This document shows positions 1 through 59,727 of a stretch of DNA of 64,000 nucleotides, in pieces. Under the pieces are notes generated by a model. It ran no database searches. It saw nothing but the letters and a program-made list of their open reading frames with translations, and was not told the origin of the DNA. Source of the DNA: an uncultured Gammaproteobacteria bacterium (GTDB lineage Bacteria > Pseudomonadota > Gammaproteobacteria > UBA9214). Positions within the stretch are counted from its first letter, which is position 1. Each line of letters starts with the position of its first letter. The translations under genes and the position numbers were made by a program. The stretch lies in assembly GCA_963701455.1 (NCBI GenBank), contig CAVPAE010000006.1, forward strand, positions 900,458 through 964,457, given 5' to 3'.

Positions 1-1
1 T

Positions 2-7001: not shown

Positions 7002-7010
7002 TAAAACGCT

Positions 7011-7065: not shown

Positions 7066-7118
7066 ATAACGAGTTAAAGTGCCAGTATATTTATAGATAG
7101 AAAAGGGCTATTACACTT

Positions 7119-8060: not shown

Positions 8061-8112
8061 GGCTGAATATAACGTCTTGACGTTATGGCGACATAGTGCT
8101 ATATATTACCCC

Positions 8113-8346
8113 ATGAGCAGTGATCCCAAACGAGCAACCGTATATTTTGATCCAGCGCTTCACCGCGCACTCCGGGTCAAAGCAGCAGAGACTGAGCGAT
8201 CCATATCGGACCTGGTCAATGAGGCTGTGCAATTAAGCCTTGTTGAGGATGCCGAGGACCTTGCTGCTTTCGAAGACAGGGTGAACGAGCCCAGCTTGCC
8301 GTATGAAGATGTCGTTAAAGATCTGAAACGACGTGGAAAAATATAA
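8113..8346 (+). CDS. Type II antitoxin, ribbon-helix-helix (RelB/ParD-like)
   Basis: RATVYFDPALHRALRVKAAETERSISDLVNEAV is an RHH antitoxin signature. It overlaps the downstream toxin gene by 14 nt. Confidence 0.7.
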   Translation: MSSDPKRATVYFDPALHRALRVKAAETERSISDLVNEAVQLSLVEDAEDLAAFEDRVNEPSLPYEDVVKDLKRRGKI

Positions 8347-8602
8347 GGTATCGATTAAGCGTTCTGCGGTGAAAGAAATTGAAGCCATACCGCAAAAGAA
8401 AGAACGGCAACGCATAATCCGTCGCATTGGCCAACTGGCTAATGATCCACGCCCCCCAGGTTCAAAGAAGCTATCCGGTCATGATAAATATCGGATACGC
8501 CAAGGTTCTTATCGTATTGTATACAGCATCGAAGGTAATGAGCTTGTCGTCGTTGTAGTGAAGGTGGGTCATCGGAAGGATGTTTACCGTGGCGCCCTCT
8601 AA
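8333..8602 (+). CDS. Type II toxin, RelE/ParE family
   Basis: 89 aa. KLSGHDKYRIRQGSYRIVYSIEGNELVVVVVKVGHRKDVY is typical of the RelE/ParE fold. GTG start. Confidence 0.8.
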   Translation: MEKYKVSIKRSAVKEIEAIPQKKERQRIIRRIGQLANDPRPPGSKKLSGHDKYRIRQGSYRIVYSIEGNELVVVVVKVGHRKDVYRGAL

Positions 8603-8656
8603 CAACTCAGCCCAGTCCGACGCGCTGACGCGCGCTGCTGGCTTCAGCCGTTAGGT
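8597..8656 (+). other. attC recombination site (cassette 7; core GTTAGGT)
   Basis: Inverse core CTCTAAC overlaps the relE stop. Dyad cagcccagtccgacgcg...cgcgctgctggcttcag. Confidence 0.6.
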
Positions 8657-8660
8657 GCTT

Positions 8661-8984
8661 ATGAAAATCACCAGCTTACTTGCTTCAATTATTCTGGGAT
8701 TAACCCTGGCTGGTTGCTCGGGCTCAAGCGACATTACGAATGCAGCAGAAGTACAAGAAGAACTTGATGACTTGTTACAGGTTGGAGCTTCAAAAGAGTA
8801 TATTGAAGCCACGCTTGTGCGTCTGAATATTGGCCATTCGTTTGATAAGTATGCTTCACGATATCAAGGCATTATCAGGAATGCCGGCGGTCCGATGGAT
8901 CATGCGGTAGTGGTATATGTATACATGGATGAAAACGACAAGCTCACAAGGGTGGAAACCCATGATTCATATACAGGGCCATAA
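8661..8984 (+). CDS. Cassette-encoded small lipoprotein (signal peptide plus LAGC lipobox)
   Basis: MKITSLLASIILGLTLAGCSG. A possible degenerate last attC (ACACAAC...GTTAGGA) lies at about 8993-9068. Confidence 0.5.
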   Translation: MKITSLLASIILGLTLAGCSGSSDITNAAEVQEELDDLLQVGASKEYIEATLVRLNIGHSFDKYASRYQGIIRNAGGPMDHAVVVYVYMDENDKLTRVETHDSYTGP

Positions 8985-9290
8985 TGTTGATTACACAACC
9001 TGCGTTTTCCAGGGCTTGCTTTCACTCGGCCGATTATGTGTGCGTAAGATGAAAAATACCGGTTAGGAACTTGACTCGAAAAATTAGTTGAATCGTTTAA
9101 GGAGCACAGTTAATTGTGCCCGGACTGTTCACTCCAATCGATGCCCGTCCCTCGCGCAATTGAGTTCAATCGCTAGACCTCGTTAAAAATACTAATTGTG
9201 TCAGTACGAATTAATTTCTAGTATTGGCGATTATTCAGGCTGACACATTTTATAAACGTTCACACTATTTCATCCAGAAGGGAAATAAAC

Positions 9291-9749
9291 ATGGGAATGA
9301 TTAACGAGTTCAAGCAATTTGCAATGCGCGGCAACGTGGTCGATATGGCCGTGGGTATCATTATCGGCGGTGCGTTTGGAACGATCGTCAAAAGCCTGGT
9401 TTCGGATGTCATGATGCCGCCGCTTGGATTGTTGCTGGGTGGTGTGGACTTTTCCGATCTGTTTATCACCCTGAAGGAAGGCGCCACTGCCGGGCCGTAT
9501 GCGACCCTGGCGGCGGCGCAGGCGGCGGGCGCGGTGACTATTGGCTACGGCGTGTTTATGAACGCCGTGATCAGTTTCCTGATTGTTGCATTCGCTGTTT
9601 TCCTGCTCATCAAGGGTATTAACAAGCTGCAGAGCGAAAAGGAAGAACCGGCCGAGCCGACCACGAAGGATTGTCCGAAATGCTTTACTGCCATTCCGAT
9701 TAAGGCGACGCGTTGTCCGAACTGCACTTCGGAAATCGGGTCTGCATAA
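9291..9749 (+). CDS. mscL: Large-conductance mechanosensitive channel MscL with a C-terminal CxxC...CxxC extension
   Basis: [30 protein letters not shown] is the MscL N-terminus. GC rises to core-genome level here. Confidence 0.85.
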
Positions 9750-9779
9750 CGGCGGGGTGAATTTAAGGAGAGTGTGAAC

Positions 9780-9925
9780 AAGTCTCGAATCGTCATTCCG
9801 GCGCATGCCGGACAAAAGCGCAAGGCGCGTTGAACGCCCGGAGGGTGGGCGAAGCGAGTCATCCAGGTAAATCGACAAGCTGGACCCCGGCCTTCGCCGG
9901 GGTGACGACTTATTCAGAGTTACCT
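9780..9925. repeat. Dispersed palindromic repeat element (cgtcattccggcg...ctggaccccggccttcgccggggtgacga family)
   Basis: Related copies at 35275-35375 and 62925-62995. Confidence 0.5.
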
Positions 9926-10065
9926 TAAGAAGACAGGGCGTCAGTGCACATGTATTTCTGATCTTCGGGCAAATCGTGCCCTGACACTCTTTCCCCCGGT
10001 CCGCTCCGGGTCAGCCCATTGGATGCAGCGCGGGGTGGCGTATACTGGGCTGAAAGACAGGGAAA

Positions 10066-27215: not shown

Positions 27216-27392
27216 GGAATCACTGATTAATTAATTCACGTGTCTCGTCATTGCGACGAACGCAGATTGTAGGTTGGGCTGAACAACTGAAGCCCAACAT
27301 GGCAAGAATCGACGGAATTCCCGCTCGTTGGGCTTCGCAGGCTCATCAACCTGCGTGCCTGGCATACGGGCGGTGTCCATGCAAGAGGTCCC

Positions 27393-29210
27393 TTGTCCTT
27401 GCTGAAGATCGACCGTCGCAGGTTATCGCCGCTGTTTGCCACGCTGTTGCGCACCTGGGGGCCCCAGCACTGGTGGCCCGGTGAAACGCCCTTTGAAGTG
27501 ATGGTGGGCGCGGTGCTGACGCAGAACACCGCCTGGACCAATGTCGAGAAGGCGATCGCCAACCTGGTCGCGCGCGACTGGCTCGATGCCGACCGGATTG
27601 CAGGACTGCGGCAGCGGGACCTGGCGCGGTGCCTGAAACCCTCCGGTTATTTCAATATCAAGGCACAACGCCTGCAGGCATTCTGCCGCTGGTACCGGCA
27701 GGCGGGCGGCTACCCGGCGCTCGCGCGGCTGCCAACGGCGGAACTGCGCGAGGCGCTGCTGGCCGTCAAGGGCATCGGGCCGGAGACCGCCGATGACATG
27801 CTGCTGTATGCCTTCGACCGGCCGGTTTTCGTGGTCGATGCCTACACCCGCCGGTTGTTCTCACGCTTTGGCCTGTGCAGTGGTGACGAGCCCTACGAAC
27901 AGCTGCGCAGCGCCGTTGAGACGGCAATGGGCACCGACGTCGACGCATTCAACGAGCTGCATGCACTGATCGTGCGCCATGCCAGGGAGGTCTGCGGGTG
28001 CGGCCGCGCTGCGCTGACTGCGTGCTGGCCGGACGCTGTCCCGCGGCGCATACCGCCGTCGGCTGACTCCCCTGCGGACAGAGGGGTTTTGCCTGCTATT
28101 CCCGCGGTCTCTGCTAAGATCATTCTGTCAGACACCAATCCGGACACAATGGTGAAGCGCATGCTGCACAAGATCCTCCGTTACCTGCTGGCAATTCCCT
28201 TGCTGCTGTTCCTGAGCGGTGTACAGGCGGAACCGGTATCGCCGCCGACCGGGCTGGAAGCCGGCATGATCAACCCCGGTTACGAGGAAAAGCCGGACTG
28301 GTTCGTCAACTCGTTCCTGGATATCCGTGAAGATGTCAGTGACGCGGCCGCCGCGGACAAGCGCGTGCTGCTGTACTTCTACCAGGACGGTTGTCCCTAC
28401 TGCAAAAAACTGCTGGATACCAATCTTGCACTGAAGGATACCGAGACCCGGATGCGCGAGCATTTCGCGGTGATCGCCATCAACATGTGGGGCGACCGCG
28501 AGGTCACCGGTTTCGCCGGCGAGTTGACCACCGAGAAGGCCTTCGCGCAGTCGCTGCGGGTGATGTTCACGCCGACGCTGCTGTTTCTCGACGAGGCGGG
28601 GAGCGTGGTACTGCGCGTGAATGGCTACTACCCGCCGCACAAGTTCAACGCGGCCCTGGATTATGCCGCGCGCCATGACGGCAAGGACCCGGATTTCAGG
28701 ACCTGGTTTGCGGCGCAGGCAACGGCACCTGCCAGCGGGGTGCTGCACCGCGAACCCGCCTGGCTGTCACCCGAGGCGAACCTGGCCGCGCGTCCGGGCG
28801 GGCGGCCCCTGCTGGTGATGTTCGAGCAGCAGGACTGCGCGCCCTGCGATGAGCTTCATCTGGATATTCTCAAGCGTCCGGCAAGCCGTGAGCAGCTGGC
28901 GCGGCTGGATGTCGTGCTGCTGGATATGTGGTCGCAGGAACCGGTGGCCCGGCCGGACGGCAAGACCGGCAGCGTGGCTGAATGGGCGCGGGAGCTGAAC
29001 GTGCAGTATGCGCCGACACTGGTGTTCTTCGATGCCTCCGGTACCGAGGTCTTCCGTACCGAGGCCTGGCTCCGGTCCTTTCACATCCAGTCCGCCATGG
29101 ATTATGTCGCCTCGGGAGGCTACCTGGAGCAGCCCGATTTCCAGCGGTTCATCGGTGCGCGCGCCGATGCCCTGGAAGCGCAGGGGATTCACGTCGATTT
29201 GCTGGACTGA
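27393..29210 (+). CDS. Single 605-aa ORF. Residues 1-215 are an HhH-GPD base-excision DNA glycosylase-like domain (EndoIII-like). Residues ~250-605 are a signal-peptide-containing double thioredoxin-fold domain (CPYC, CAPC). It is probably two genes, or a fusion.
   Basis: N-terminal half VLTQNTAWTNVEKAI...AVKGIGPETADDML. Second half MVKRMLHKILRYLLAIPLLLFLSGVQA then YFYQDGCPYCKKL and MFEQQDCAPCDEL. No in-frame stop between them. Confidence 0.5.
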   Translation: MSLLKIDRRRLSPLFATLLRTWGPQHWWPGETPFEVMVGAVLTQNTAWTNVEKAIANLVARDWLDADRIAGLRQRDLARCLKPSGYFNIKAQRLQAFCRWYRQAGGYPALARLPTAELREALLAVKGIGPETADDMLLYAFDRPVFVVDAYTRRLFSRFGLCSGDEPYEQLRSAVETAMGTDVDAFNELHALIVRHAREVCGCGRAALTACWPDAVPRRIPPSADSPADRGVLPAIPAVSAKIILSDTNPDTMVKRMLHKILRYLLAIPLLLFLSGVQAEPVSPPTGLEAGMINPGYEEKPDWFVNSFLDIREDVSDAAAADKRVLLYFYQDGCPYCKKLLDTNLALKDTETRMREHFAVIAINMWGDREVTGFAGELTTEKAFAQSLRVMFTPTLLFLDEAGSVVLRVNGYYPPHKFNAALDYAARHDGKDPDFRTWFAAQATAPASGVLHREPAWLSPEANLAARPGGRPLLVMFEQQDCAPCDELHLDILKRPASREQLARLDVVLLDMWSQEPVARPDGKTGSVAEWARELNVQYAPTLVFFDASGTEVFRTEAWLRSFHIQSAMDYVASGGYLEQPDFQRFIGARADALEAQGIHVDLLD

Positions 29211-30215: not shown

Positions 30216-30338
30216 GCGGGCGAATTATACCCGGGTTTGCATGATTCGGGCGGCTAATATGTTGTCCCGGCGACACTGACCGGCTGTACGGTTACCGGTT
30301 GTGGCACAATAACAGGACCCGATTAAACAGGCTGGACC

Positions 30339-30986
30339 ATGCTCAAGAATATACCCCTGTTCGCGGACCTGGATGACGCCGAGCTGGAATTCCTTTCGCG
30401 CCGCGCGGTGACGCGGAAGTTTCCACGCAACGCCGTCTTCATGACCGAGGGGGATTACAGCGATTCCCTCTATTGCATCCTGTCCGGCCGGGTGAAGGTC
30501 TACCTGAACGATGACGAGGGCAAGGAAGTGATCCTGAATGTCCAGGGACCGGGGGAATATTTCGGGGAACTGGCCCTGCTGGATTCCGGGCCGCGTTCCG
30601 CCTCGGTCATGGCGCTGGAGAAGTGCCGGCTGTCGGTGATTTCAAAGGCCGATTTCGAGGAATTTCTGGACAATCATGCAGCGGCACAAAAGAAGATCAT
30701 GCTGGGCATGGTCAAGCGCCTGCGGGCGCTGACGGAGAACGTGCGCACGCTGGCACTGCTGGATGTCTACGGGCGGGTGGCACGGGTATTGTTGCAACTG
30801 GCCAGGCCGGTCGGCGATGTGCTGGTGATCAATGAGGAACTGCGCCAGCAGGATATCGCCAATCGCGTCGGTTCCTCGCGCGAGATGGTGAGCCGCGTCC
30901 TGAAAGACCTGCGCGAGGGCGGTTATATCGAGATCGACGAAAACCGCCACATCGTGATCAAGGAGAAATTGCCGGCGGGGTGGTGA
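30339..30986 (+). CDS. Crp/Fnr-family transcriptional regulator
   Basis: cNMP-binding domain (GEYFGELALL) and a C-terminal helix-turn-helix (RQQDIANRVGSSREMVSRVL). Confidence 0.85.
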   Translation: MLKNIPLFADLDDAELEFLSRRAVTRKFPRNAVFMTEGDYSDSLYCILSGRVKVYLNDDEGKEVILNVQGPGEYFGELALLDSGPRSASVMALEKCRLSVISKADFEEFLDNHAAAQKKIMLGMVKRLRALTENVRTLALLDVYGRVARVLLQLARPVGDVLVINEELRQQDIANRVGSSREMVSRVLKDLREGGYIEIDENRHIVIKEKLPAGW

Positions 30987-31029
30987 CCGGTATCGGTTGC
31001 TGCAAGTTTCCCCGATCGTGAAGTTATGC

Positions 31030-31375
31030 TTCCGTCCTGTAGGAGCACCCTAAAGGGCATAAACGCCGTCCTTCGGCGCGATTGTTTGAGGTTCGCATCG
31101 CGGTCAGAAGACCGCTCCTACACGCAATAGATGCACCTGTAGGAGCGCCGCCCTTCGGCGCGATCGTGCAAACATCCATCGCGGTCAGAAGACCGCTCCT
31201 ACACGCAATAGATGCACCTGTAGGAGCGCCGTCCTTCGGCGCGATCGTGCAAACATCCATCGCGGTCAGAAGACCGCTCCTACACAACCAGAAGCACCTG
31301 TAGGAGCGCCGCCCTTCGGCGCGATTGTCCGGGTCTGGTATCGCGGTCAGGAGACCGCTCCTACAGGAGGATGAT
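31030..31375. repeat. 4 tandem copies of the 82-bp-family palindromic repeat
   Basis: Same ctgtaggagcgccgYccttcggcgcgat...atcgcggtcagaagaccgctcctaca units. Confidence 0.7.
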
Positions 31376-31399
31376 TGCAACGATGGAGTTTGCCGGGTC

Positions 31400-31606
31400 C
31401 TAGAAACAAACCCACTGGCCCTGAAACCAGAAGCAGAGATGTCCCGGACTGTGTTTGGTTGCGGCCATGACGATGATGTCCGAGTGGGGTGGTGCAGGGG
31501 CCGCCGGTGCCTTTCCCGCGTCGCCTCCGCCGATCTTTTCGATGCCCACGATCTTGCCTGTGGGGTCCATCTCGAACTCGATCTGGAATTTCACATTTCC
31601 GCTCAT
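31400..31606 (-). CDS. Small hypothetical protein (68 aa) with a Gly/Ala/Pro linker and a Cys/Trp-rich C-terminus
   Basis: MSGNVKFQIEFEMDPTGKIVGIEKIGGGDAGKAPAAPAPP...CFWFQGQWVCF. Coding status uncertain. Confidence 0.3.
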   Translation of the reverse strand: MSGNVKFQIEFEMDPTGKIVGIEKIGGGDAGKAPAAPAPPHSDIIVMAATKHSPGHLCFWFQGQWVCF

Positions 31607-31744
31607 GATCTCCTCCCTGCTGCTTGCCGGTAGATTGCCGCGCCCGTTACTCCGGGGCGACGCAGTGCTTTGCAGCGGCCGTGGTGGGCCGCTGGCTCCT
31701 GCTTTATTCTGTCTGCCGAGCTGTGGACTCGGCCGGTTCGTCAG

Positions 31745-34700
31745 AACGCCAGGGTAATGCGCCCGTAGACGAGCCGTTCCGGATAGATTCGCGGGTTGAA
31801 GGGATCGGTATCGACGAAGTTGAACGATTCGTCGAACAGGTTGCTGACACCGACACTGACCAGTCCACGGCGTTTCGGCAGGCGATAGCCCAGCGCGGTA
31901 TCCACGATCCAGAAATCTTCATCCTGTTCTTGCAGTCAACGTACTGCCCGGCTGTATCAGCGAAGTCACCTGTCTGGTCCATGTAGCTGGCCTTGAGTTT
32001 CGCGATGTAGCCGTCGGGGATGAAAATAATTGATGCTCAGGGGGAGCTTGTTGGTCCGGACCCGGGTTGCCTCCAGTTCACCGGTGAAATCGTCGGTACG
32101 CGCAAAGCGCTCGTACTGGTATTCCGCCCCGATGGACAGGCGCGGGTGTGGCGTCCAGAGGAGGTAGGCCCGCCCGAAGCGCTCCTGCCAGTCGGATTCA
32201 ATCACATCCGGAACCGGTGTTACCTGGATGCGTGGAACATCGAGGTCACGCCAGGAGTATTCCATGCCTGCCGCGAGGTCGGGGCTGAATACCTGGTCGA
32301 GCGCCACGCCGTAGCGCTTTGTCACGGTACCTTCCGGATCATCGTAGAACTGGTTGAAGCCCGCGACCTGGGTCGGTTCCACGGTCTGGTTCGAGATCAG
32401 GCTGCGCTTGACCGTGCGAAAGGCGGCGGCTCGCAGGGTGGTGTCGGGGATGAACTCCCAGCTCAGGCCGAGCTTCGGATTGAACTTGTTGACATCGTGT
32501 GTGAGTTTGTCGGTCGAGGTGATCGGGAACGGAATAGCATCCAGGTTGGTGACCGAGTTAACCGTCTTGTCGTTCTCAAAATCATCGTAGCTCCCGCCAA
32601 CTGTCACGGTCAGGTTGTCGCGCGGCAGGTAATAGGTATAGATATAGGCGTTCGCATGGGTGATGTCATCGTGTTCTGTGGCTGTTATGTCACTGAACAG
32701 AAATTCGTCACCCATGAAGGAGTTGTCGATGACACGTTCATTTCGCTTCCTGTCTGCATCGAAGTAGCCGATGCCGCTGATCAGGTTAAGCGATTTACTT
32801 CGCCACAGATGCTGCAGTTCCGATACATAGCCATCAACCGGCCCGTCCAGATCAGCCGTATAGAGTGATGCAATCTCGGAATGCAGATTCTCATCACGAT
32901 CCTGACGTATATAGGACGCGATGATTTCCGAGTGGGGGGTGAATTTATGATTCAGGCCCAGCCGTGCGGTATCGGTATCGATGGTCCTGCGTTCATTTGA
33001 TCTCATAAAGTTCGGGTCTATATGCAGCTGCAGATCACCGCCATCGCTCTCGAGATGCCGTACCTCGGCCTGGAGGCTGGTCTTGTAGCTAACTGCCGTC
33101 TGCACGAACAGGTTGTAGACCGTCCTCGTTCTGGTCGCCGTTGTCCTGGTAGCCGTCGGTTTCGTAATGGAACTGGCCCGCGCTCCAGGACCAGTTGTTG
33201 TACACGCCGCTTTGTACCAGGTCATCGCCCAGGGTGTCGTTGCCCCCGGCGAGAGCATTGGCCTGCAGGGCAAGGCGGTTGCGTGTGAACAGTGGATTGA
33301 ACTCCAGGAATGCCGCATCTGACGGGCCGGCATTTTCCAGGATGAACAGGTCGGTCTCGGCCAGTTGCGGTTGCACCGGTGTCAGGTTGAGGGGCTGCAG
33401 CAACTGCGATTGCAGCAGTTCGCTAACGCGGGCGATCTCGTGGCGCGGCTGGGAAGAATAACTATCAGCCAGCAGGCGGTGGGCGGAGAAATTGGTCGGG
33501 TCGGTGTTGACCGACTGCCAGCCCTCGACCAGGGCGCGTTGTTCGAAGCCGAGGTCACGTGTAAATCCGTGCAATGCTGGCGCTGCGTGTCGCCAGGTCG
33601 GAATCCAGTTCCAGGCGGGAGCGGTAGACCGCGCGGTTGTCGTTCAGCTTGATGGAGGTCTGCAGGTCATGCAGGGCCTCGACGGGGCGGTTCTCCGTCT
33701 GCTTGCGGATGGCGTCGTAGAACCACGGCGTCGGATCGTTGGGGTCCAGTTTCCGGGCCATCTCGTACTGGGTCCCTGCCAGCCTGTCGCGTTTTTCCTC
33801 GTAGTAGGCCTTGCCCATGTAGCTGCGGATCAGGGAATTGCCCGGGTCCAGCGCCACGGCGACTTCGATTTCCTCGCGGCCGGCTGTCAGTTCGCCGCGG
33901 CGTATCTTTGCCAGCCCGAGGCCGAGGCGGGGCAGGGGCGCGGCCTGGTCGAGTGCGATGGCCTTCTCGAATGCCGCCGTGGCCTCGGGCAGCCGGATTT
34001 CCGTCAACCAGGCGAAGCCCAGTACGGTCTGGGTGTGGGCAACGTTCACGTCCAGTGCCACGGCACGTTCCGCTGCATTCACGCCCTGGTCAAGGTCGCC
34101 CACGGAGAGCCACAACTCCGCCAGGCGTGACCAGGCGAGCGCATTGCCAGGTTGCTTGCGGACGGCATACTGCAGGGTGGCGAGCGCGGCAGACAAGTCA
34201 AAGTGCGCCTGTTGTGCATAGGACAGCGCGATTCTGGCCGTGGCGGATTCCGGTGCGGCCTCCACTGCACGTGTCGCCAGTGCCAGCGCGGAATCCTTGT
34301 CGTTCAGGGTCAGGGCGATAATCGATTGCAGTGCCAGTGCATCGCTGTTGCCGGGGTCCTGCTGCAGCAGCATGTCGAGCAGGCCGCGGGCGGCATCGAC
34401 CTGGCCGACGTCAAGCGCCTGCGCGGCCTGTTGCAGCGTGGTGTTGCCGGACGTCAGCACCGGCGGGTAATACAGCGTCCACTGAACGGCATCACGGGGG
34501 CGCACCAGCACCTGCTTGAACGGGGCCATTCCGGCCTGCGCGATAGCCTGCTCGCCGTCAGCCACTGCGACATCGCCTGCAGCGGACTCGACCCGGACCC
34601 GGCCTTCATAAACGGTCACATCCGTCTGGTTCGTTGCGACCTCGACCAGGAACTCCGTGCCTTCGATGGCAGCATTGGCAAACGGGGTGATGACTTTCAA

Positions 34701-35139
34701 CGAGCGCGGATCGCGGCTGATAAGGTGGGCCGCACCTTTCAGCAGTTCCAGCCAGGTCGAGCCATCCGTGGTTTCCGCGGGTGTAAACACGATGGAGCTC
34801 GACTGGTCCAGCCGGATAATGGTTTCCGGGTACAACTGGATGGCAACCCGGCTGTTCGCACCGGTACGCAGCGGCATCGCCGGGACAGTACTCCTCTTCC
34901 CGGGTTGCCGCCTGCCAGTCCGTTTCACCGGCATAGCGGACATCCAGGGGGCCTTGTATAGAGACCGCACGGGCGATGCTGGATTCGCAGCGCTCTGCTG
35001 CAGTGATGTGTGGTGAGGCGAATGCCAGTGCGAGTTGCAAGCCGATACAGGTGATGGAATAACGCGTCGCTGAAAAGTCAAAGAACTCTCTCCCCGAAAA
35101 AGCCCGGCATTGCGGGCGATTATCATGTTGTTTAGCCAT
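31745..35139 (-). pseudogene. Large secreted protein gene (~1130 aa) split over at least 5 reading frames: signal peptide, FecR-like domain, TPR repeats, C-terminal beta-barrel ending in Phe
   Basis: Pieces on the minus strand: 34606..35139 (signal peptide), 33555..35126 (ITPFANAAIEGTEFLVEV FecR block plus TPRs), 33089..33574, 31966..33333 (beta-rich), 31745..31928 (…NLFDESFNFVDTDPFNPRIYPERLVYGRITLAF stop). Frame breaks near 34880, 33565, 33100-33330 and 31940. Confidence 0.5.
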
Positions 35140-35400
35140 ATACGTAAAACTACGTAGTACTAAGTAGTTTTACGTATATGGCGCTATTTGTAGTGTTTGT
35201 GAGGAGTACTTTAAGTGTCCTGCGCTGGAAAACCAACCCTGTGAACAGGAGTTTTGCTCGATTTAAGGAGTCTCTGAACAAGTTATGATTCGTCATTCCG
35301 GCGAAGGCCGGAATCTAGGGAAATCAACAAACTGGACCCCGGCCTTCGCCGGGGTGACGAATTGTTCAGGATTTCCTTAATGTGGATCAATTGACCGGGA

Positions 35401-37626
35401 TCATTTGAGATCCATGCGAATCATTCCGTCCTGGTCAGGCGGCGGTTGCAGGCGGCAGCGGGCCAGGAAAAAACGCAGCACGCCGTCGCGATCGTTCTCC
35501 TTCTGCAGTGCCGAAAATATCGATTCAGCCGTGTGCCGGTCGCCGGCACGAAACGCGGCGAGTCCCTCGGCGAAGCGCGCCAGGTAGCCACTGCGGCTGG
35601 CTGCTTCCGGGTCGGCTTCGGTACCCAGCAGTTCATGGATCACCACGGGGCGGGATTTACCTGAAAGGATGAAGCTGCCCAGCTCGCGTGTCTGCAGGCC
35701 AGCGACACCGGCAAGGACTTCCGCGCTCAGCAGGATTTGCGTTCCCAGGTGTGAATTCAGCCCCTGGATGCGCGTGCTGGTGTTGACGATATCCCCGACG
35801 GCCCGGTATTCGTAATGGTCCACCGCGCCGATGTTGCCCAGCAGGATTTCTCCGCTGTGCAGACCGATGCGTGTCTGCAGGCAGTGCCGCATACCTGCGT
35901 TTGCAGGCGCATCCAGGGCGCGGTTGATCTCCAGGGCCGCCTGGATCGCCTGACGCTGGATAGCAGGTTCCCGTTTCACCGCCGCCCAGATCGCCAGCAT
36001 GGCATCGCCCACCACGTCGGAGATAATGCCGTTGTTGTTGCGCACCGGTTGAAACAGGGTTTCGTAGTAGGCATTCATTAATTCACCCAGCTCCGCGGGC
36101 GGCATGGCTTCCGACATCCGGGTGTATTCGTAGGCATCGGTGGACAGACAGACCCCGTGCATCAGTTGTCCGGCTGCCTGGGTATCGGCGCGCTTGCTGG
36201 CAAGTTCGTCCACCACCTGCGGGGGCAGGTACAGGCCGAAAGCCGAGCGGATGGTTTCCCGTTCCCGGTTGACGTCGAGGTAATGCCACAACAGGGCGGC
36301 GAACAGGGCCAGCGGCAGTTGCAGTCCCAGCGGCATCAGCAGCGGCAGCCACACTGCCGAATGGCTGAACAGGAGATGGCTGCCGCCGAGGTAGAGACCC
36401 GCAAGGCCAATTCCCGCCAGGATCGCCGGGACAGCCGGCAGCAGCCGTACCAGTGCACCTGCCAGGACGCCCCATGCCAGCAGCAGGCCATAGAAAACCG
36501 GTAACGGCAGCGGGGTGACGGGCAGGTCTTCCAGCAGGTTGGCGAATGCCGTGGCGGCGATTTCCACCCCGCTCAGGTTCAGTCCGTTGTCCTGTGAGAA
36601 CACGGTGTAGAACTCATCCAGTTGTTCGGGGTGCAGGCGTTCCGAGTAACCCACGAACACCGCCTTGCCCTGCAAGTCGGGCAGCCCTGTCTCTCCTGGC
36701 CGGGTGTTCCCGGGCGCCAGCAGGCGTGCGTAGGGAATGGTGGTAATGGTTTGCGGCGGTCCGTAAAAGTTCAGGTAACGGCTGTCCGGGCCGGAATACA
36801 GGCCGAGCAGTGCCAGCAGCAGACCATGCTGTTTCGTGTCGGTGCTGAATGCCCCACGCAGCGCAGTTGCCAGGTCCGGGTTTGCCGCAAAGGTTGCGCG
36901 CAATGCCTGTATTTCATGCACCAGGCCGGCTCCAGGCTGACTGCCGGATGTGGCCGGTTTTCGAGCAGGCGCCGTGGCCAGGTCGGCAACCCGTGCCTGC
37001 AATTCGGGAATGGCCGCAGCCGTATGCAGTTGCAGTGCGACCACCGGTTCGCTCGGCAACTCGCCGGTGCCGCTGGTGAAGGCCCAGTACTGGCTGACCC
37101 TGACCGGGTAGACCGGCAGGGGGAAGGGCGCTATGGCACGGGCCGCCGTGGCAAGTTCCTCAACGGGCGGCAGCAGTTGCTGGGTGATCATCTCCCCGGT
37201 GTACTTGCCGGTTGCATCAAACAGGCGGGTGATATCCTTGCGGGTATAGGCGAACAGGACCACGCGATTGGCATCCCTGATGGCCTGCGCCAGCAGCCGG
37301 TCTTCCCCGGGTCCCCGTGCTTCCCTGAAAAAGATATCGAGTGCGATGACCGATGCCCCGGCAGCGGCAAGCCGGTTTACCAGTTGCGCATGGATGCTGC
37401 GCGGCCACTGTGCAGGTTCGTTTGGCAGCCCCAGGGCCTGCGCGGAGAGCTTGTCGATACTGACGACGATGACGTCTTCAGGCGGCGCGCGGGTTCCCCG
37501 CAGCTTGAACAGCAGGTCGAGGCCGGTGCTTTCCTCGAGCGCGTGCATGCCGGGCAGGCTGCTGACAATCACGCCAAACAGGCCGGTGAGGACTCCCAGC
37601 AACAGCGCCTTTGCCTGTCTGGTCAT
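35401..37626 (-). CDS. CHASE2 sensor domain-containing adenylate/guanylate cyclase
   Basis: N-terminal CHASE2 domain, TM region, C-terminal class III cyclase (VVGDAMLAIWAA, RIGLHSGEILLGNIG, GDIVNTSTRIQG). Confidence 0.85.
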   Translation of the reverse strand: MTRQAKALLLGVLTGLFGVIVSSLPGMHALEESTGLDLLFKLRGTRAPPEDVIVVSIDKLSAQALGLPNEPAQWPRSIHAQLVNRLAAAGASVIALDIFFREARGPGEDRLLAQAIRDANRVVLFAYTRKDITRLFDATGKYTGEMITQQLLPPVEELATAARAIAPFPLPVYPVRVSQYWAFTSGTGELPSEPVVALQLHTAAAIPELQARVADLATAPARKPATSGSQPGAGLVHEIQALRATFAANPDLATALRGAFSTDTKQHGLLLALLGLYSGPDSRYLNFYGPPQTITTIPYARLLAPGNTRPGETGLPDLQGKAVFVGYSERLHPEQLDEFYTVFSQDNGLNLSGVEIAATAFANLLEDLPVTPLPLPVFYGLLLAWGVLAGALVRLLPAVPAILAGIGLAGLYLGGSHLLFSHSAVWLPLLMPLGLQLPLALFAALLWHYLDVNRERETIRSAFGLYLPPQVVDELASKRADTQAAGQLMHGVCLSTDAYEYTRMSEAMPPAELGELMNAYYETLFQPVRNNNGIISDVVGDAMLAIWAAVKREPAIQRQAIQAALEINRALDAPANAGMRHCLQTRIGLHSGEILLGNIGAVDHYEYRAVGDIVNTSTRIQGLNSHLGTQILLSAEVLAGVAGLQTRELGSFILSGKSRPVVIHELLGTEADPEAASRSGYLARFAEGLAAFRAGDRHTAESIFSALQKENDRDGVLRFFLARCRLQPPPDQDGMIRMDLK

Positions 37627-37744
37627 CAGGATGAGCTGTTTCAGGGTAGCGTTTCGTGAGAATCAATAATGGGACAGAAACAGGGGGATGACAAGCAAAC
37701 CCTTGATGCTGCAGGCAGTCGGGTATGCAGTTCTACGGTGCGGT

Positions 37745-37850
37745 TGCTTAAGTCCGCATCGCGGTCAGTACCCAAAGAACGGGCATAAAGAGACCGCTCC
37801 TACAGCCAATAGTTGCACCTGTAGGAGCGGCTTTCAGCCGCGATTTGCGC
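37745..37850. repeat. Single copy of the 82-bp-family palindromic repeat
   Basis: atcgcggtcagtacccaaagaacgggcataaagagaccgctcctaca...cctgtaggagcgg. Confidence 0.5.
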
Positions 37851-37973
37851 CTGCAAAACCGGACCAGAAGATCACCAGCGGTGAATTCCAGGAATGGCAT
37901 GAAATAGTCATTGCATCCTGTAATTCATGGGGTGAAATGGGTTGTCAATCCAGAATATATGCAACTGACGAGT

Positions 37974-41610: not shown

Positions 41611-42936
41611 TTATGTTTGGTGAGTGGATTGAATGCGGTCTCTCCAGCCGCGGGTGCGCGCGAGGATGTCGTTGCCGTCCAGCGTGGTCAGGCGGCGCTC
41701 TTTCAGCAACTGCCGGCCGGCCACCCAGACATCGGTTACCTGCTCGCGCCCGCCAGCGTACACCAGCTGGGATACCGGATCATACACGGGCTGGGTTTCC
41801 GGGGTATCCAGGTTGACGGCGGCCAGGTCCGCCCACTTGCCGGGCTGCAGTGAACCGGTTTCCTCGCCCAGCCCCAGCGCAGTGGCGCCATTCAGGGTGG
41901 CCATGCGCAGCACCTCGTGTGCCGGCAGTGCGCTGGCATCTCCGCTGGTGCCTTTCGCCAGCAGCGCGGCGGTGCGCATCTCGCCGAGCATGTCGAGGTC
42001 GTTGTTGCTGGCCGCGCTGTCGGTGCCCAGCGCCACGTTGACGCCGGCGGCAAGCAGCGCCTGCACCGGGCAGAAGCCGCTGGCAAGTTTCAGGTTGGAC
42101 TCCGGACAATGCACCACGTGGCCGCCGGCAGCAGCGAAGGCGGCAATTTCCGCGCTGCCCAGCTGGGTCATGTGGACGGCGATCAGTGCCGGGGAGACCA
42201 GTCCGAGATCATGCAGGCGGGCGAGGGGACGCTGGCCCGTGAGTTCCTCGGCCTTGTCGACCTCGTCTGCCGTCTCGTGCACATGCATGTGAATGCCGAT
42301 CTCCAGCTCGTCGGCGAGGACGCGAATGTGCTGCAAAGGCTGGTCGGATACCGTGTAGGGGGCATGTGGTGCAAACACCGTGCTGATCAGCGGATCGCCG
42401 CGATAGTTGTCGTGCACGGCGAGGCCCCTGGAGATGTACTCGCCGGCGTCGTTTGCCCACACCGTGGGAAAATCGATCACGATCAGGCCGACGCTGGCGC
42501 GCATGCCGCAGGCGGCCGCGGTCCGTGCCGTGATATCCGGGTAAAAATACATGTCGTTGAAACAGGTGGTGCCGCTGCGCAGCATCTCGGCGATGGCGAG
42601 TTGCGTGCCGTCGTGGACAAACTCCTCGTTTACCCAGCGTGATTCGGCTGGCCAGATATGCCCGTTGAGCCATTCCTCCAGCGGGATGTCGTCGGCCAGT
42701 CCGCGCAGCAGCGACATGGCTGCATGGGTATGCGCGTTGACCAGTCCCGGGATCAGCAGGTGGCGATCCAGGTGGTGTTCAGTGTCAGCGGTATAGCGGG
42801 TATGTGCCTCGACAGTCGGCAGGATGTCGAGGATGCGGCCTTCCTGAATGGCAAGGCTGTGATGTTCGTAAAGGGTCGCTGCCGGTTCGACCGGGGCAAT
42901 CCAGCGGCAATGGATGAGGGTATCGATGTTGTTCAT
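41611..42936 (-). CDS. mtaD: Amidohydrolase, 5-methylthioadenosine/S-adenosylhomocysteine deaminase-like (TRZ/ATZ family)
   Basis: [19 protein letters not shown] metal-binding HxH, 441 aa, adjacent to ubiG. Confidence 0.7.
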
Positions 42937-43046: not shown

Positions 43047-43671
43047 TCAGTTCTTCGGCGTTTTGACACCGACACTGATATCAACACGACGGTTCTGGGC
43101 ACGGCCTGCCTTGGTGCTGTTGTCTGGCCACCGGCTCGGATTCACCCTTGCCGCTGACATCGATGATGCCCGCATCGATGCCTTCGCTGACCATGTAGTC
43201 CTTGACGGATGTGGCACGACGCAGGGACAGTGCCTGGTTGTACTCTTCGGTACCGATGCTGTCGGTGTGACCCACCACGTTGATGTCGATCACCTGGGCA
43301 CCCTGGCTCTTGATCTGGTCGTCAAGCGCTGTGATGGCTGCCTTGCCTTCCGGCTTCAGGTTGGACTTGTCAAAGTCGAACAAGGCTTCAGCCTTGATGG
43401 TGGAGGTTGTATAGACCGGAGCGGCGGGTGCCATCGGTGCTGGTGGCGGTGCTTCAACCACCTCGAGGCCGCAGTCCACGGTCATGTCTTCGGCCTTCCA
43501 GAAACCGGTGCGAACGCAGTTGCCCGCGCTGTCCGTCACGTAGTGACCGTTGGCATCGCCGACGTAACCTGCGCCAGCCTTGCCGGCTTCATGGGCTGTA
43601 ACGCTGCTTGCGAACAGCAGTCCGGCAGCAATAGAGGCGACTATTCCTCCGATTTTATAGTCGTTTTTCAT
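43047..43671 (-). CDS. OmpA-family peptidoglycan-associated protein with an apparent 1-bp insertion near 43124 that breaks the conserved C-terminus
   Basis: OmpA-like domain VGHTDSIGTEEYNQALSLRRA. The present frame ends RQQHQGRPCPEPSC at 43081. The +1 frame restores the canonical DNSTKAGRAQNRRVDISV end with a stop at 43047. Confidence 0.7.
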
Positions 43672-45323: not shown

Positions 45324-47906
45324 ATGAGCGATTTCGCAAAAGAAATACTGCCCGTCAATCTCGAGGACGAGATGAAGCAGTCCTACCTCGATTACGCCAT
45401 GAGCGTGATCGTGGGACGGGCATTGCCGGATGTGCGTGACGGTCTGAAGCCGGTGCATCGCCGTGCGCTCTTCGCCATGAGCGAGCTGGGCAACGACTGG
45501 AACAAGGCCTACAAGAAATCGGCGCGTATCGTCGGTGACGTCATCGGTAAATACCACCCGCATGGCGATACCGCGGTGTACGACACGATCGTGCGCATGG
45601 CGCAGCCGTTCTCGCTGCGCTACATGCTGGTCGACGGCCAGGGCAACTTCGGTTCCGTGGATGGCGATTCCCCGGCCGCGATGCGTTATACCGAAGTCCG
45701 CATGGCGCGGATAGCGCACGAGCTGATCGCCGATATCGACAAGGAAACCGTCGATTTCGTTCCCAACTATGACGAGACCGAGCACGAACCTTCGGTCTTC
45801 CCGACGCGTTTACCGAACCTGCTGGTCAACGGCTCTGCCGGTATTGCCGTGGGCATGGCGACCAACATTCCGCCGCACAACCTGACGGAAATCATCAGCG
45901 CCTGTCTTGCGATTATCGACAATCCCGAGATCGATATCGACGGACTGATGGAATACGTGCCGGGTCCGGATTTCCCGACGGCCGGGATCATCAACGGTGT
46001 GCGTGGCATTCACGAGGCCTATCGCACCGGGCGCGGCCGCATCCAGATACGGGCGCGCAATCACGTCGAGACCGACGAGGCCCGTGGGCGGCAACACCTT
46101 GTGTTTACCGAGTTGCCCTACCAGGTGAACAAGGCGCGCCTGCTGGAAAAGATCGCCGAGCTGGTCAAGGACAAGAAGATCGAGGGTATCTCCGGCCTGC
46201 GCGACGAGTCCGACAAGGACGGCATGCGCATGGTCGTGGACCTGAAGCGTGGTGAAGTGGCGGAAGTGGTGCTGAACAACCTCTACCAGCATACCCAGCT
46301 GCAGAATGTCTTCGGCATCAACATGGTGGCGCTGGTCGATGGCCGCCCGCAGCTGCTGAACCTGAAGCAGTGCCTTGAGGCCTTCATTCGTCACCGCCGC
46401 GATGTGGTTACCCGGCGCACCGTGTTCGACCTGCGCAAGGCGCGCCAGCGGGCCCACATCCTGGAAGGCCTCGCCGTCGCGCTGGCCAATATCGATGAGG
46501 TGATCCGGGTCATCAAGTCATCGCCCAACCGCGCCGTGGCCAAGGAGGCCCTGATGGCCCGCAGCTGGGAACCGGGGGCGGTGACCGACATGCTGGAACG
46601 CTCCGGCAGCGATTGCCACGCGGCCGGATGAACTGGAAGAAGGTTACGGACTGGTGGCCGATGGCTACCGTCTGTCCGAGGCACAGACCCAGGCCATCCT
46701 CGATCTGCGCCTGCACCAGCTGACCGGGCTGGAGCAGGACAAGATTGTCGACGAATACAAGGAACTGCTCGACCTGATCGACGAACTGCTGGCCATCCTG
46801 CAGAATCCGGAGCGCCTGATGCAGGTGATTCGCGACGAGCTGACCGAGATACGCGACCAGTTACGGGGATGAGCGCCGCACGGAAATCCTCACCGACCAT
46901 CTCGATCTCACGCTGGAAGACCTGATCACCGAGGAAGACGTGGTGGTGACGCTGTCGCATGCCGGCTATGCAAAATCCCAGCCGCTGTCGGACTACCGCG
47001 CCCAGCGCCGTGGCGGCCGCGGCAAGAGTGCGGCGGACGTCAAGGAAGAGGATTTCATCGACAAGCTGTTTATCGCCAGCACCCACGATACCATTCTGTG
47101 CTTCTCCAGCCGCGGCAAGGTTTACTGGCTCAAGGTCTACGAATTGCCGCAGGCCGGCCGCGCCGCGCGCGGCAAGCCGATCGTGAACCTGCTGCCGCTG
47201 GAGGCGGACGAGCGCATCAATGCGATTCTGCCGATACGTGATTTTTCCGACGGACCACTACGTGTTCATGGCGACGGCGCTGGGTACCGTGAAGAAGACG
47301 CCGCTGGTGGATTTCTCCCGCCCGCGTGCCAACGGCATCATCGGCATCGACCTGCGCGACGAGGACTACCTGATCGATGTGGCGATCACCGATGGCACCC
47401 AGGACATCATGCTGTTCAGCAATGCCGGCAAGGTGATCCGCTTCCGCGAGGCTGACGTGCGTGCCATGGGACGCACCGCCTGCGGCGTGCGCGGCATCAA
47501 GCTGCAGTCAGGTCAGCAGGTCATTTCCCTGATCATCGCCAGCGAGAGCCCGGTACTGACCGCTACCGAGAACGGCTATGGCAAGCGCACCCTGGCCGCG
47601 GACTACCCCGTTTACGGCCGTGGTGGCCAGGGGGTCATCGCCATCCAGGTTACGGAAAGAAATGGTGCCGTTGTGGGCGCTGTGCCTGCTGACGAAACGG
47701 ACGAAGTCATGTTGATCAGCGGCGGCGGGACACTGGTGCGCACCCGCGTCAACGAGATCTCCGTGATGGGCAGGAATACCCAGGGCGTGCGCCTGATCGC
47801 CCTGGATGCCGGCGAACAGCTGGTCGGTATCGAGCGCATTATCGAGGATCGTGGCGAGGACGAAGATGCCGACGATGCCAAAACGAATGAGGAAACATCA
47901 GAATGA
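45324..47906 (+). CDS. gyrA: DNA gyrase subunit A; reading frame interrupted by three apparent 1-bp insertions (near 46613, 46863, 47254)
   Basis: [47 protein letters not shown]... Canonical GyrA sequence continues across ORF-track pieces 45249..46631, 46654..46872, 46940..47455 and 47220..47906. Deleting one base at each site restores [25 protein letters not shown] and [15 protein letters not shown]. Confidence 0.85.
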
Positions 47907-52503: not shown

Positions 52504-53360
52504 TCGAGCGACTCTGCATCATCGGTGTTGGCCTGATCGGCGGCTCGCTGGCGCGGGCATTGCGCGAGGCCGGCTATTGCAGGTCCGTGGTGGGAGCGGG
52601 GCGCAACCCGGAGAATCTTCGGCATGCCATCGAACTGGGTGTTATCGACAGCTATGAAACCGATCTTGCCCGGGCGGTAGCCGGCGCAGACATGGTGCTG
52701 GTCGCGGTACCCCTGGGTGCGATGGAACCCGTCTTCAGCGCAATTCGGGGACATCTTGCCGATGGCGCCGTGCTGACCGATGCCGGCAGCGCCAAGGTCA
52801 GCGTCATCGAAGCGGTACGGCGGGCATTCGGGGAAGTGCCGGAGAACTTCGTGCCAGGGCACCCGATCGCAGGTATCGAGCAGAGCGGGGTGGCGGCCTC
52901 GCTGCCGGACCTGTATCGCAATCGCCGGGTGATCCTCACACCGTTGCCGGAAACCGCCGCCGCTGCCACCCAGCGGGTGCGGAGCATGTGGGAGGTGGCC
53001 GGCGCGGAGGTGGTGGACATGGAACCCGTGCATCATGACGCGGTGCTCGCGGCAACCAGTCACCTGCCGCACGTGCTGGCGTTTACCCTGGTGGAGAGCC
53101 TGGCGCGGCTGCAGGACAAGGCGGAAATTTTCGAGTATGCGGCCGGCGGATTCCGGGACTTCACCCGTATCGCCTCCAGCGATCCCGTCATGTGGCGCGA
53201 TATCTGTATCGCCAACGGGGATGCGATCCAGCAGATGATCGAGCGCTTTATCGGTGACCTGCAGGTGCTGGATCGAGCCGTGGAGGCACGCGATGGTGAC
53301 CGTCTGCTGCAGATTTTCGCGGATGCCAAGGCGGCTCGCGACCGCTTTGTGCACAAGTAA
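52500..53360 (+). CDS. tyrA: Prephenate/arogenate dehydrogenase
   Basis: IIGVGLIGGSLARAL NAD-binding N-terminus, 286 aa. Confidence 0.85.
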   Translation: MIERLCIIGVGLIGGSLARALREAGYCRSVVGAGRNPENLRHAIELGVIDSYETDLARAVAGADMVLVAVPLGAMEPVFSAIRGHLADGAVLTDAGSAKVSVIEAVRRAFGEVPENFVPGHPIAGIEQSGVAASLPDLYRNRRVILTPLPETAAAATQRVRSMWEVAGAEVVDMEPVHHDAVLAATSHLPHVLAFTLVESLARLQDKAEIFEYAAGGFRDFTRIASSDPVMWRDICIANGDAIQQMIERFIGDLQVLDRAVEARDGDRLLQIFADAKAARDRFVHK

Positions 53361-53374
53361 CCCGGGGTACGCTC

Positions 53375-55366
53375 ATGAGTGAACTGCGCTTTCATGCAAC
53401 GCCCGGCGGCTGCCTGACCGGCCGCCTGCGGGTGCCCGGCGACAAGTCGATTTCACACCGTTCCATCATGCTGGGTTCGCTGGCCGAGGGGGAAACCCGG
53501 GTCAGCGGTTTTCTGGAAGGTGAGGACAGCCTGGCGACACTGGCGGCGTTTCGCGCCATGGGCGTGGATATCGAGGGGCCGCAGGCCGGCAGGGTGCGCA
53601 TCCAGGGGGTGGGTCTGCATGGCCTGACCGCGCCCGCCGATGCGCTGTACCTGGGCAATTCCGGGACCTCCATGCGGCTGATGTCGGGGCTGCTTGCCGG
53701 CCAGGCATTCGATACCACCCTGACCGGGGATGTCTCCCTGTCGGGACGGCCCATGCAGCGCGTGGTGCGGCCACTGACCGGCATGGGGGCGCGTATTGAT
53801 GCGACAGCGGCCGGGACGGCGCCGCTGCGGATACACGGCGGCGCGGCGCTGACCGGCATTGACTACGACATGCCGGTTGCCAGCGCGCAGGTGAAATCCA
53901 GTGTCCTGCTGGCCGGGCTGTATGCCACCGGGACAACCTGTGTGCGCGAACCGGCGCCGACCCGCGACCACACCGAACGCATGCTGGCGGGGATGGGTTA
54001 TCCGCTGCGGCGTGAACCCGGGCGGGTTTGCCTGGATGGCGGACACGGGCTGCACGGTATTGAAATCGATGTCCCGGCGGACATTTCCTCGGCGGCATTT
54101 TTTCTGGTAGGTGCCAGTATCGCACCGGGTTCCGACCTGGTGCTCGAACATGTGGGCATGAATCCGACGCGCACCGGGGTCATCGATATCCTGCAGCGCA
54201 TGGGTGCCGCGATCGAGGTGCGCAACGCACGCGATGTCGGCGGTGAACCGGTGGCCGACCTGCATGTCCGTTCGGCACCCCTGCGGGGGATCGATATCCC
54301 GCCCGAACTCGTGCCGCTGGCGATCGATGAATTTCCCGTGATCTTTGTCGCGGCGGCCTGCGCGCAGGGCAGGACCGTGCTGACCGGTGCCGAGGAGTTG
54401 CGGGTCAAGGAAAGCGATCGCATCCAGGTGATGGCGGATGGCCTGAAGGTGCTGGGCATCAATGCGGTCGCAACCGCGGACGGTATGCAGATCGAGGGTG
54501 GTACGCTCGGCGGCGGCTGCGTCGACAGTCACGGCGATCATCGCATCGCCATGGCGTTCACCATGGCGGCACTGCGGGCGCAGGCTGCCATAGAAATTCG
54601 TGACTGCGCCAACGTGAACACCTCGTTCCCGGATTTCGTCGGCCAGGCACGCCACGCCGGCGTCAACGTCGAGACAGCTCGAGCTGAGATTTCTATGCAC
54701 GTTCCGGTTATCACCATCGACGGCCCCAGCGGTTCCGGCAAGGGCACGATCAGCCAGTTCCTGGCGGAGGAACTGGGCTGGCATCATCTTGACAGTGGTG
54801 CGTTGTATCGACTGCTGGCCTATGCCGCGTTGCAGGAATCCGTGGCGCTGGATGATGCCACGGCGCTGGCGGCGCTGGCCGGTCGCCTGCAGGCACGCTA
54901 CCGTTTGCCGACACGGCAGAATCCGGAGATCCTGCTCGATGGCGAGGATGTTGGCGAGGCCCTGCGATCCGAGACCTGCGGCAACGCGGCATCGCAGGCG
55001 GCGGCCCTGCCGGCGGTGCGCCAGGCGCTGCTGGAATGGCAACGGCACTACCGCCAGTCACCCGGTCTGGTCGCTGACGGACGTGACATGGGAACGGTGG
55101 TTTTTCCCGATGCCGACCTCAAGCTGTACCTGGTGGCGCGTCCCGAAGTGCGCGCCCTGAGAAGATATAACCAATTGAAAAAAAAGGGAATAGAGGTGGA
55201 TCTGGCGGAGCTGGTTAGCGCGGTCGAGACCCGCGACCGGCGTGATTCAGCACGCGAGGCATCCCCCCTGAAACCCGCCGGGGATGCACTGATCGTGGAT
55301 AACAGTGACCTGGATGAATCCGAAACCCTGCGTCTCATTCTGGACGCCGTCCACAGGGTTGTGTAA
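53375..55366 (+). CDS. aroA: 3-phosphoshikimate 1-carboxyvinyltransferase (EPSP synthase, residues ~1-435) continuous with cytidylate kinase (residues ~440-663) in one ORF
   Basis: EPSPS N-terminus LRVPGDKSISHRSIMLGSLAEGET. The cytidylate kinase part starts MHVPVITIDGPSGSGKGT. No in-frame stop. An out-of-frame TGA 8 nt upstream of the cmk ATG suggests a possible 1-bp indel rather than a genuine fusion. Confidence 0.8.
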   Translation: MSELRFHATPGGCLTGRLRVPGDKSISHRSIMLGSLAEGETRVSGFLEGEDSLATLAAFRAMGVDIEGPQAGRVRIQGVGLHGLTAPADALYLGNSGTSMRLMSGLLAGQAFDTTLTGDVSLSGRPMQRVVRPLTGMGARIDATAAGTAPLRIHGGAALTGIDYDMPVASAQVKSSVLLAGLYATGTTCVREPAPTRDHTERMLAGMGYPLRREPGRVCLDGGHGLHGIEIDVPADISSAAFFLVGASIAPGSDLVLEHVGMNPTRTGVIDILQRMGAAIEVRNARDVGGEPVADLHVRSAPLRGIDIPPELVPLAIDEFPVIFVAAACAQGRTVLTGAEELRVKESDRIQVMADGLKVLGINAVATADGMQIEGGTLGGGCVDSHGDHRIAMAFTMAALRAQAAIEIRDCANVNTSFPDFVGQARHAGVNVETARAEISMHVPVITIDGPSGSGKGTISQFLAEELGWHHLDSGALYRLLAYAALQESVALDDATALAALAGRLQARYRLPTRQNPEILLDGEDVGEALRSETCGNAASQAAALPAVRQALLEWQRHYRQSPGLVADGRDMGTVVFPDADLKLYLVARPEVRALRRYNQLKKKGIEVDLAELVSAVETRDRRDSAREASPLKPAGDALIVDNSDLDESETLRLILDAVHRVV

Positions 55367-59009: not shown

Positions 59010-59727
59010 ATGAGCACGGCGGAGAAACCCGAACCCAGGGTAATCGTGGCCCTGGACTACCCTGACCGCACCGCGGCCCTGGCGCTGGTCGAGCGACTGG
59101 AGCCGGGGTCTATGCCGGCTGAAGGTAGGCAAGGAACTGTTTACCCGTGCCGGGCCACAGCTGGTCGAGGACCTGATTGCGCGCGGCTTCGAGGTGTTCC
59201 TGGACCTGAAATTCCACGATATTCCCAATACGGTGGCCAGCGCCTGCCACGCCGCTGCGGACCTGGGCGTGTGGATGCTGAATGTCCATGCGCTCGGCGG
59301 GGAGCGGATGCTGCTGGCGGCGCGTGAAGGCTGCGCAAGGGCAGGGCACAACCCGTTGCTGGTCGCGGTTACCATTTTAACCAGCATGGATGCGCAGGAC
59401 CTCGCAGCAGTCGGTCTTGCCGGGTCGCCGGAAGACAATGTGCTGCGGCTCGCAGCCCTGGTGCAGCGCTGCGGTCTCGACGGTGTGGTTTGTTCCTCCC
59501 GCGAGACGGCTGTCCTCAGGGAACGGCTCGGGCCGGACTTCACCCTGGTGACGCCGGGCATCAGGCCGGCCGGCAGTCAGCAGGACGACCAGCGCCGCGT
59601 CATGACGCCGCAGGAGGCCATCAGCAGTGGTGCCAGCTATCTGGTGATCGGCCGCCCGGTGACCCAGGCTGACGACCCGGTCAGCGTTTTGCGTACAATC
59701 AATTCGGAACTCGCCGCTTTGCAATAG
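59010..59727 (+). CDS. pyrF: Orotidine 5'-phosphate decarboxylase; frame broken by an apparent 1-bp indel near 59110
   Basis: [23 protein letters not shown], then after the shift [43 protein letters not shown]-track pieces 59010..59327 and 59194..59727. Confidence 0.8.

Follow-up and report, generated by a model that had tools for sequence, protein, structure and literature searches.

The breaks that split gyrA into four reading-frame pieces, and those in other genes of the 64,000-nucleotide stretch analysed here (the window), are most probably consensus indel errors and not mutations of the organism; judging from the sequence, we put this at about 90%. The true gyrA would be intact and unremarkable, with about 859 codons, and the consensus would have gained bases (9 cases) or lost bases (2 cases) at 11 places in roughly 57 kb. 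The source is most likely a long-read metagenome-assembled genome (MAG). An earlier note, made from the bare sequence, had proposed this reading of the breaks. It is supported by lesions private to this sequence, by an essential gyrA that has not decayed, by the predominance of insertions (9 of 11) and by frameshifts in other MAGs.

Three single-base insertions in gyrA

The broken gene is the canonical, syntenic copy of gyrA. It lies in the order mtnA-gyrA-serC-serA-pheA-hisC-tyrA-aroA-cmk-rpsA, and relatives share a common order of ompA-like, mtnA, gyrA, serC, serA, pheA, hisC, tyrA, aroA, cmk, rpsA, ihfB and lapB. Searches by tblastn with twelve orthologous GyrA proteins, and later with GyrA of close relatives, resolved the gene into four pieces that tile the orthologue with zero residues missing, every step between pieces being +1.

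45324-47906, + strand: gyrA, syntenic canonical copy, in four frame pieces with three single-base insertions
45324-46610, frame 3: gyrA residues 1-429 (tblastn)
46606-46860, frame 1: gyrA residues 428-512 (tblastn)
46859/46862-47248/47251, frame 2: gyrA residues 512/513-641 (tblastn)
47244-47903, frame 3: gyrA residues 640-856 (tblastn)

The open reading frames and the DNA alignment place the breaks at these junctions. In the ORF list and the three-frame translation, the first frame ends at a TGA at 46629-46631; the +1 frame runs to 46870-46872 and the +2 frame to about 47250, after which the original frame continues to the stop at 47904-47906. Aligned as DNA with five relatives (83–91% identity), gyrA shows one-base insertions at exactly three positions, about 46611, 46859 and 47250, and the remaining gaps, all in the acidic tail, have lengths divisible by three. 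The earlier note had put the breaks at about 46613, 46863 and 47254; three-frame translation, tblastn and DNA alignment confirm these positions to within about 4 bases. It had also recommended comparison with orthologues, and all three extra bases are absent from the five relatives aligned as DNA.

46611-46614, + strand: gyrA frameshift 1, codon 430; extra base in AGC-GATT-GCC, where relatives have ATT, GTT, ATC, GAT or GAC
46859-46862, + strand: gyrA frameshift 2, codons 512/513; extra base in GAC-CAGT-TAC, where relatives have CGC TAC or CAG TTC
47250-47253, + strand: gyrA frameshift 3, codon 642; extra base in TCC-GACG-GAC, where relatives have GCA, GGG, GCC or GAT, then GAC or GAT

Recoding does not account for the arrangement. 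Three +1 ribosomal frameshifts, transcriptional slippage or editing could in principle carry expression across the breaks, and the three shifts do sum to +3, bringing the last piece back into the original frame. But the sites (GAT TGC C, CAG TTA CGG and GAC GGA CC) have no common motif, A-site stop or homopolymer run, frame 0 reaches a stop 15 nt past the first insertion, and the arrangement occurs in 0 of 120 relatives. The window's one genuine programmed frameshift, in an IS3-family element, has the expected A6G site, whereas the gyrA sites have none.

3333-4435, - strand: IS3-family element with orfA/orfB overlap; A6G slippery site near 4157-4163

The frameshift in this element is a natural -1 programmed event and is not to be counted as an error. 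With neither motifs nor conservation to speak for it, recoding of gyrA was rejected, and we give it next to no chance.

A canonical GyrA under mostly unrelaxed constraint

Removing one base at each site restores a complete GyrA, as the earlier note had predicted. The repaired protein has 859 aa, with no stop in the repaired frame, and is 94–95% identical over 100% of the length to intact metagenome GyrA proteins of 856–862 aa. Its 120 closest proteins, all from metagenomes, are without exception intact, at 843–882 aa in a single frame. Against the NCBIfam equivalogs TIGR01063 and NF004043 it scores 1271 and 1249 bits, passing the cut-offs of 902 and 877, and it spans positions 2–797 of the 798 in the NCBIfam profile. 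The deposited fragments (435 aa and 228 aa), scanned as they stand, reach 755 and 223 bits, below the NCBIfam gyrA cut-offs. Aligned with E. coli GyrA (6rks_A), the repaired protein is colinear in a single stretch, 1–849 on 1–849, which includes the C-terminal beta-pinwheel domain; the active-site tyrosine motif AAMRYTE and the QRDR motif HPHGD(T/S)AVYD match up.

Selection on gyrA continues past the breaks. After frameshifts 2 and 3, dN/dS is 0.02–0.07, against 0.04–0.055 upstream of the breaks, and pairs of intact relatives give like values. Only the segment between frameshifts 1 and 2 rises above baseline, at 0.12–0.25 versus 0.06–0.12 among relatives, roughly double; this segment, 430–512, is naturally variable.

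These values bear on a reading in which the breaks are real pseudogene lesions. The lineage would be losing genes, much as a bacterium does when it has recently become restricted to a host and its IS elements are expanding, and it would keep a working gyrA paralogue elsewhere in the genome. Inspection was confined to the window, and the postulated paralogue would lie outside it. Against this, gyrase is essential in bacteria, and the broken gene is the canonical syntenic copy. Constraint on it is unrelaxed after frameshifts 2 and 3, and the repaired frame contains no nonsense codons and no larger deletions. It is very unlikely that the insertions are truly in the DNA, whether with three +1 recodings or with canonical gyrA replaced and the syntenic copy newly decaying.

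Other broken genes in the window

A census against close syntenic relatives found 11 frameshifts in 6 genes, comprising 9 insertions and 2 deletions. The relatives were the syntenic contigs L081-L090, L091-L101, L171 and L172. The census took in every gene from 11.4 to 62.7 kb, plus one gene of the low-GC island judged by profile coverage, roughly 57 kb being checkable. The FecR-TPR gene carries four lesions and gyrA three, with one each in the ompA-like gene, pyrF, the HhH-GPD gene and pycC. None of the 11 was found in any relative compared. About 45 further genes are intact against relatives, and the CHASE2 cyclase is intact too.

5607-6360, + strand: Pycsar cyclase PycC; one-base insertion somewhere in 5741-5773, which leaves the N-terminus as a separate small ORF ahead of the cyclase ORF at 5758-6360
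27429-28066, + strand: HhH-GPD gene; one-base deletion at 27995/27996, TGC-GGG versus TGCAGGG in relatives
31744-35159, - strand: large FecR-TPR gene (1113 aa in L172) with four frameshifts; the upper coordinate is the stop-bounded limit
about 31922-31924, 32016-32019, 33121 and 33557: FecR-TPR lesions, the first a deletion, the others insertions (that at 32016-32019 in a CCCC run)
43050-43671, - strand: ompA-like gene, 207 aa long in relatives; one-base insertion at 43125, where the gene strand reads GCC-A-GAC and relatives have GCT GAC or GCC AGC
59010-59727, + strand: pyrF; one-base insertion within 59103-59112, CCGGGGTCTATGCC in the window versus CC-GGGTTCATGCC in relative L091

Several of the secondary suspicions raised by the earlier note proved sound. 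It had named breaks in the ompA-like gene near 43124 and in pyrF near 59110, and comparison with relatives resolves each to a one-base insertion, at 43125 in the first and within 59103-59112 (against L091) in the second. It had suspected that an HhH-GPD-thioredoxin fusion was an artefact: the deletion at 27995/27996 destroys the C-terminal C-x6-C-x2-C-x5-C of the HhH-GPD protein and causes readthrough into the next, thioredoxin-like gene, producing a false 640-aa ORF at 27291-29210. Likewise, the small ORF before the cyclase, flagged as a possible artefact, is the N-terminus of PycC severed by a one-base insertion, and repair widens the match to the PADLOC PycC profile from positions 43–207 to 9–200 of 226. 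The suspicion about the FecR-TPR gene held in part. The gene is indeed broken by four frameshifts, but its combination of domains is natural, since L172 has a 1113-aa protein with both FecR and TPR. Two of its lesions, at 32016-32019 and about 31922-31924, form a compensating pair 95 nt apart with three stops between them. Hidden pairs of frameshifts that compensate each other were also sought within long HSPs, and this FecR-TPR pair was the only one found.

The repaired cyclase belongs to a Pycsar-type defence pair at 5607-7001, in which PycC (5607-6360 after repair) is followed by a PycTM effector (6342-7001). Both match PADLOC models, and the pair sits in a low-GC island that occupies window positions 1-10000, at 42–50% GC versus about 62% elsewhere. 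The island also holds the IS3-family element at 3333-4435 and two further transposase genes.

970-2055, + strand: DDE_3 (IS630-like) transposase gene, in the low-GC island
2081-3154, - strand: DDE_3 (IS630-like) transposase gene, in the low-GC island

The census supplies evidence both for and against real gene decay. On the side of decay, the first 4.4 kb of the window hold three transposase genes; the ompA-like, FecR-TPR, HhH-GPD and PycC genes are dispensable, and four lesions fall in the FecR-TPR gene alone. Yet about 45 genes nearby show no break, and insertions make up 9 of the 11 lesions, opposite to the usual course of bacterial gene decay, which is deletion-biased. Together with the constraint on gyrA and with lesions of the same type in rpsA and trpS of other MAG loci, these counts make pseudogene formation improbable.

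Three further differences from relatives lie outside the census total. The first is at the junction of aroA and cmk, which form a single in-frame ORF of 688 aa at 53300-55366. All nine relatives inspected keep the two genes apart by a stop codon and a short spacer, which measures about 9–10 nt in the closest ones.

54680-54694, + strand: aroA-cmk junction, without a stop and in frame; its length is as in L081 and L088, where TAG is followed by a 9-nt spacer

The relatives' stop is replaced with length unchanged, and the fusion is therefore not assignable; hypothetically, loss of a T, turning GCT TGA into GCTGA, would likewise account for it. The second is in the amidohydrolase gene, which stops at a TAG at 41611-41613 where relatives have Gln or Arg and their own stop five codons later; natural variation of no consequence and a substitution error are the two possible readings. 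The third is a block at 30300-37900, about 7.6 kb more than in L081 and L171, that holds a Crp-like regulator, the FecR-TPR gene and the CHASE2 adenylate/guanylate cyclase. Parts of it occur in L172 and L088, and gene content differs among the close relatives.

The deposited record and other assemblies

The breaks belong to the deposited sequence. Public records contain both gyrA fragments (435 aa and 228 aa) as well as six proteins of neighbouring genes, and for each the only source is one NCBI/ENA contig of 966,777 bp. By exact look-up, the deposited fragments are identical to the window's and no second contig carries them; the breaks are thus publicly recorded as they stand in the window. 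From a contig of 966,777 bp in an uncultured lineage we infer a long-read metagenome assembly. No second assembly of the same species was present in the databases searched, where the best GyrA identity was 95%. Among the matches listed in a search of genome contigs with the GyrA N-terminal domain, the best reached 77% identity, the level of distant orthologues.

Long-contig MAG loci elsewhere in the clade have frameshifts of their own. Private lesions interrupt an amidohydrolase gene in L089 (ERZ25039508 contig_97735), cmk and rpsA in L090 (GCA_942491995.1) and trpS in L172 (ERZ25039549 contig_3976).

L089, 6662-6667: frameshift site in the amidohydrolase gene
L090, 20112-20140 and 21310-21316: frameshift sites in cmk and rpsA
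L172, 9992-10032: frameshift site in trpS

All four are insertions of 1–2 bases in non-homopolymer context, and all four sit in locally conserved codons. The JGI metagenome contigs that we fetched showed no frameshifts (L081 and L088 gene by gene, plus L171). The four insertions suggest that the records of L089, L090 and L172 share the same data-quality problem.

Clustering, variable codons and a possible origin

The errors are clustered in the window and, within gyrA, fall on its most variable codons. Four of the 10 inter-site gaps are 450 bp or less (P = 0.005, uniform model), and 7 of the 11 lesions lie in two genes. In an alignment of 120 relatives with 845 columns, the three gyrA junctions fall at columns 430, 512/513 and 642. 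The top 1.3% of columns by variability include 430, the top 3% include 512 and the top 10% include 513; at 642 the entropy reaches 2.05 bits, where the 99th percentile is 1.90.

Many of these errors may stem from a consensus built across mixed strains. Where reads of co-occurring strains or close species differ at adjacent bases, the consensus would keep bases of both alleles. In gyrA, GAT and ATT would merge to GATT, TTC and TAC to TTAC, and GAC or GAG before GAC to GACGGAC; in the ompA-like gene, AGC and GAC would merge to AGAC. Merging of alleles is our proposed cause for the excess of insertions, for the clustering and for the fact that the gyrA sites coincide with the gene's most variable codons. 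The local clustering itself could reflect strain heterogeneity or low coverage. The idea was formed post hoc, and we advance it with less confidence than the artefact explanation itself. Precedents exist for both: frameshifts from consensus indels are documented in long-read MAGs (PMC9262707), and in collapsed assemblies nearby allelic variants bring indel errors and truncated ORFs (PMC8445201).

Alleles of more distant relatives are enriched around one gyrA break. At 46.68–46.9 kb, about 12 of 26 informative sites in gyrA carry alleles of the B-clade (L089/L090), versus about 10% elsewhere. The stretch, 46680-46900, surrounds frameshift 2. The enrichment is suggestive of a chimeric consensus, and natural recombination would explain it equally well.

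Consensus errors could also arise with no strain mixture, from random single-read errors at low coverage or from base-calling errors tied to sequence context or a methylation motif. It would be one version of the artefact explanation and no alternative to it. Of the 8 sites found first, 6 have a GACC/GGTC motif no more than 8 nt away, versus 15% expected (p = 2.4e-4, uncorrected and post hoc), and at two or three sites a short homopolymer changes length (CCC to CCCC, GGG to GG, possibly GGG to GGGG in pyrF). The frameshifts of other MAGs also favour it: they sit in conserved codons, and allele merging is therefore not the sole mechanism. The motif enrichment, however, becomes marginal once corrected for the k-mers tried, and one of the GACC motifs is made by the insertion itself. 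Asp codons in variable loops further confound the test, and none of the four frameshift sites in the other MAG loci has the motif nearby. The clustering, together with the gyrA sites on hypervariable codons, led us to reject uniform random errors. Random error and mutation are both disfavoured because nothing would steer either to hypervariable gyrA codons. Errors confined to homopolymers were rejected too, just two or three of the 11 sites lying in runs of three bases or more. Error without strain mixture is possible but less likely than not.

Merging of strain alleles would change what such frameshifts mean. The gyrA errors fall on hypervariable codons and have the look of merged alleles, and frameshifts in MAGs may therefore mark strain microdiversity and not random noise. 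In other respects the consensus errors have quality-control value only. At least six genes of the window are mis-called, and the calls include a spurious HhH-GPD-thioredoxin fusion and a spurious small ORF, which is really the N-terminus of PycC, both due to single-base errors. Gene calls, pseudogene counts, fusions and domain architectures on this contig are unreliable before polishing, and the same probably holds for the sister long-contig MAGs of the clade.

Comparison with known systems

Programmed frameshifting and genome reduction each resemble the window in one respect. As in the +1 frameshift of prfB and the -1 frameshift of IS3-family elements, one gene is spread over two frames; unlike them, gyrA has no shift-prone motif and its arrangement is not conserved in relatives. 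Pseudogenes of reductive genomes likewise show frameshifted genes beside IS elements. Unlike such pseudogenes, the window has an essential syntenic gene hit three times under unrelaxed selection, and its lesions are mostly insertions and unshared by relatives.

Collapsed alleles in Trypanosoma brucei offer a closer parallel to the proposed merging (PMC8445201). There too, errors lie beside clustered variants, the extra base is present in neither allele, and ORFs are truncated. All three gyrA sites fall on codons variable among relatives, as collapsed-allele errors do. Unlike the homologous chromosomes of T. brucei, the alleles here would belong to co-occurring strains or species, with haplotypes proposed from the consensus.

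Long-read consensus indels, as detected by IDEEL-type tests (PMC9262707, 10.1101/2021.08.23.457338), are like the window in most respects. In both, the indels are single-base and private to one assembly, conserved and essential genes fall apart into neighbouring ORFs, with several cases per tens of kilobases, and the contig is long while relatives are intact. The window departs from classical nanopore homopolymer indels in that most of its sites lie outside long homopolymers and its indels comprise 9 insertions against 2 deletions. The gyrA breaks most probably fall in this well-known class of long-read consensus indel error, with a touch of the collapsed-haplotype kind, and are not a feature of the organism.
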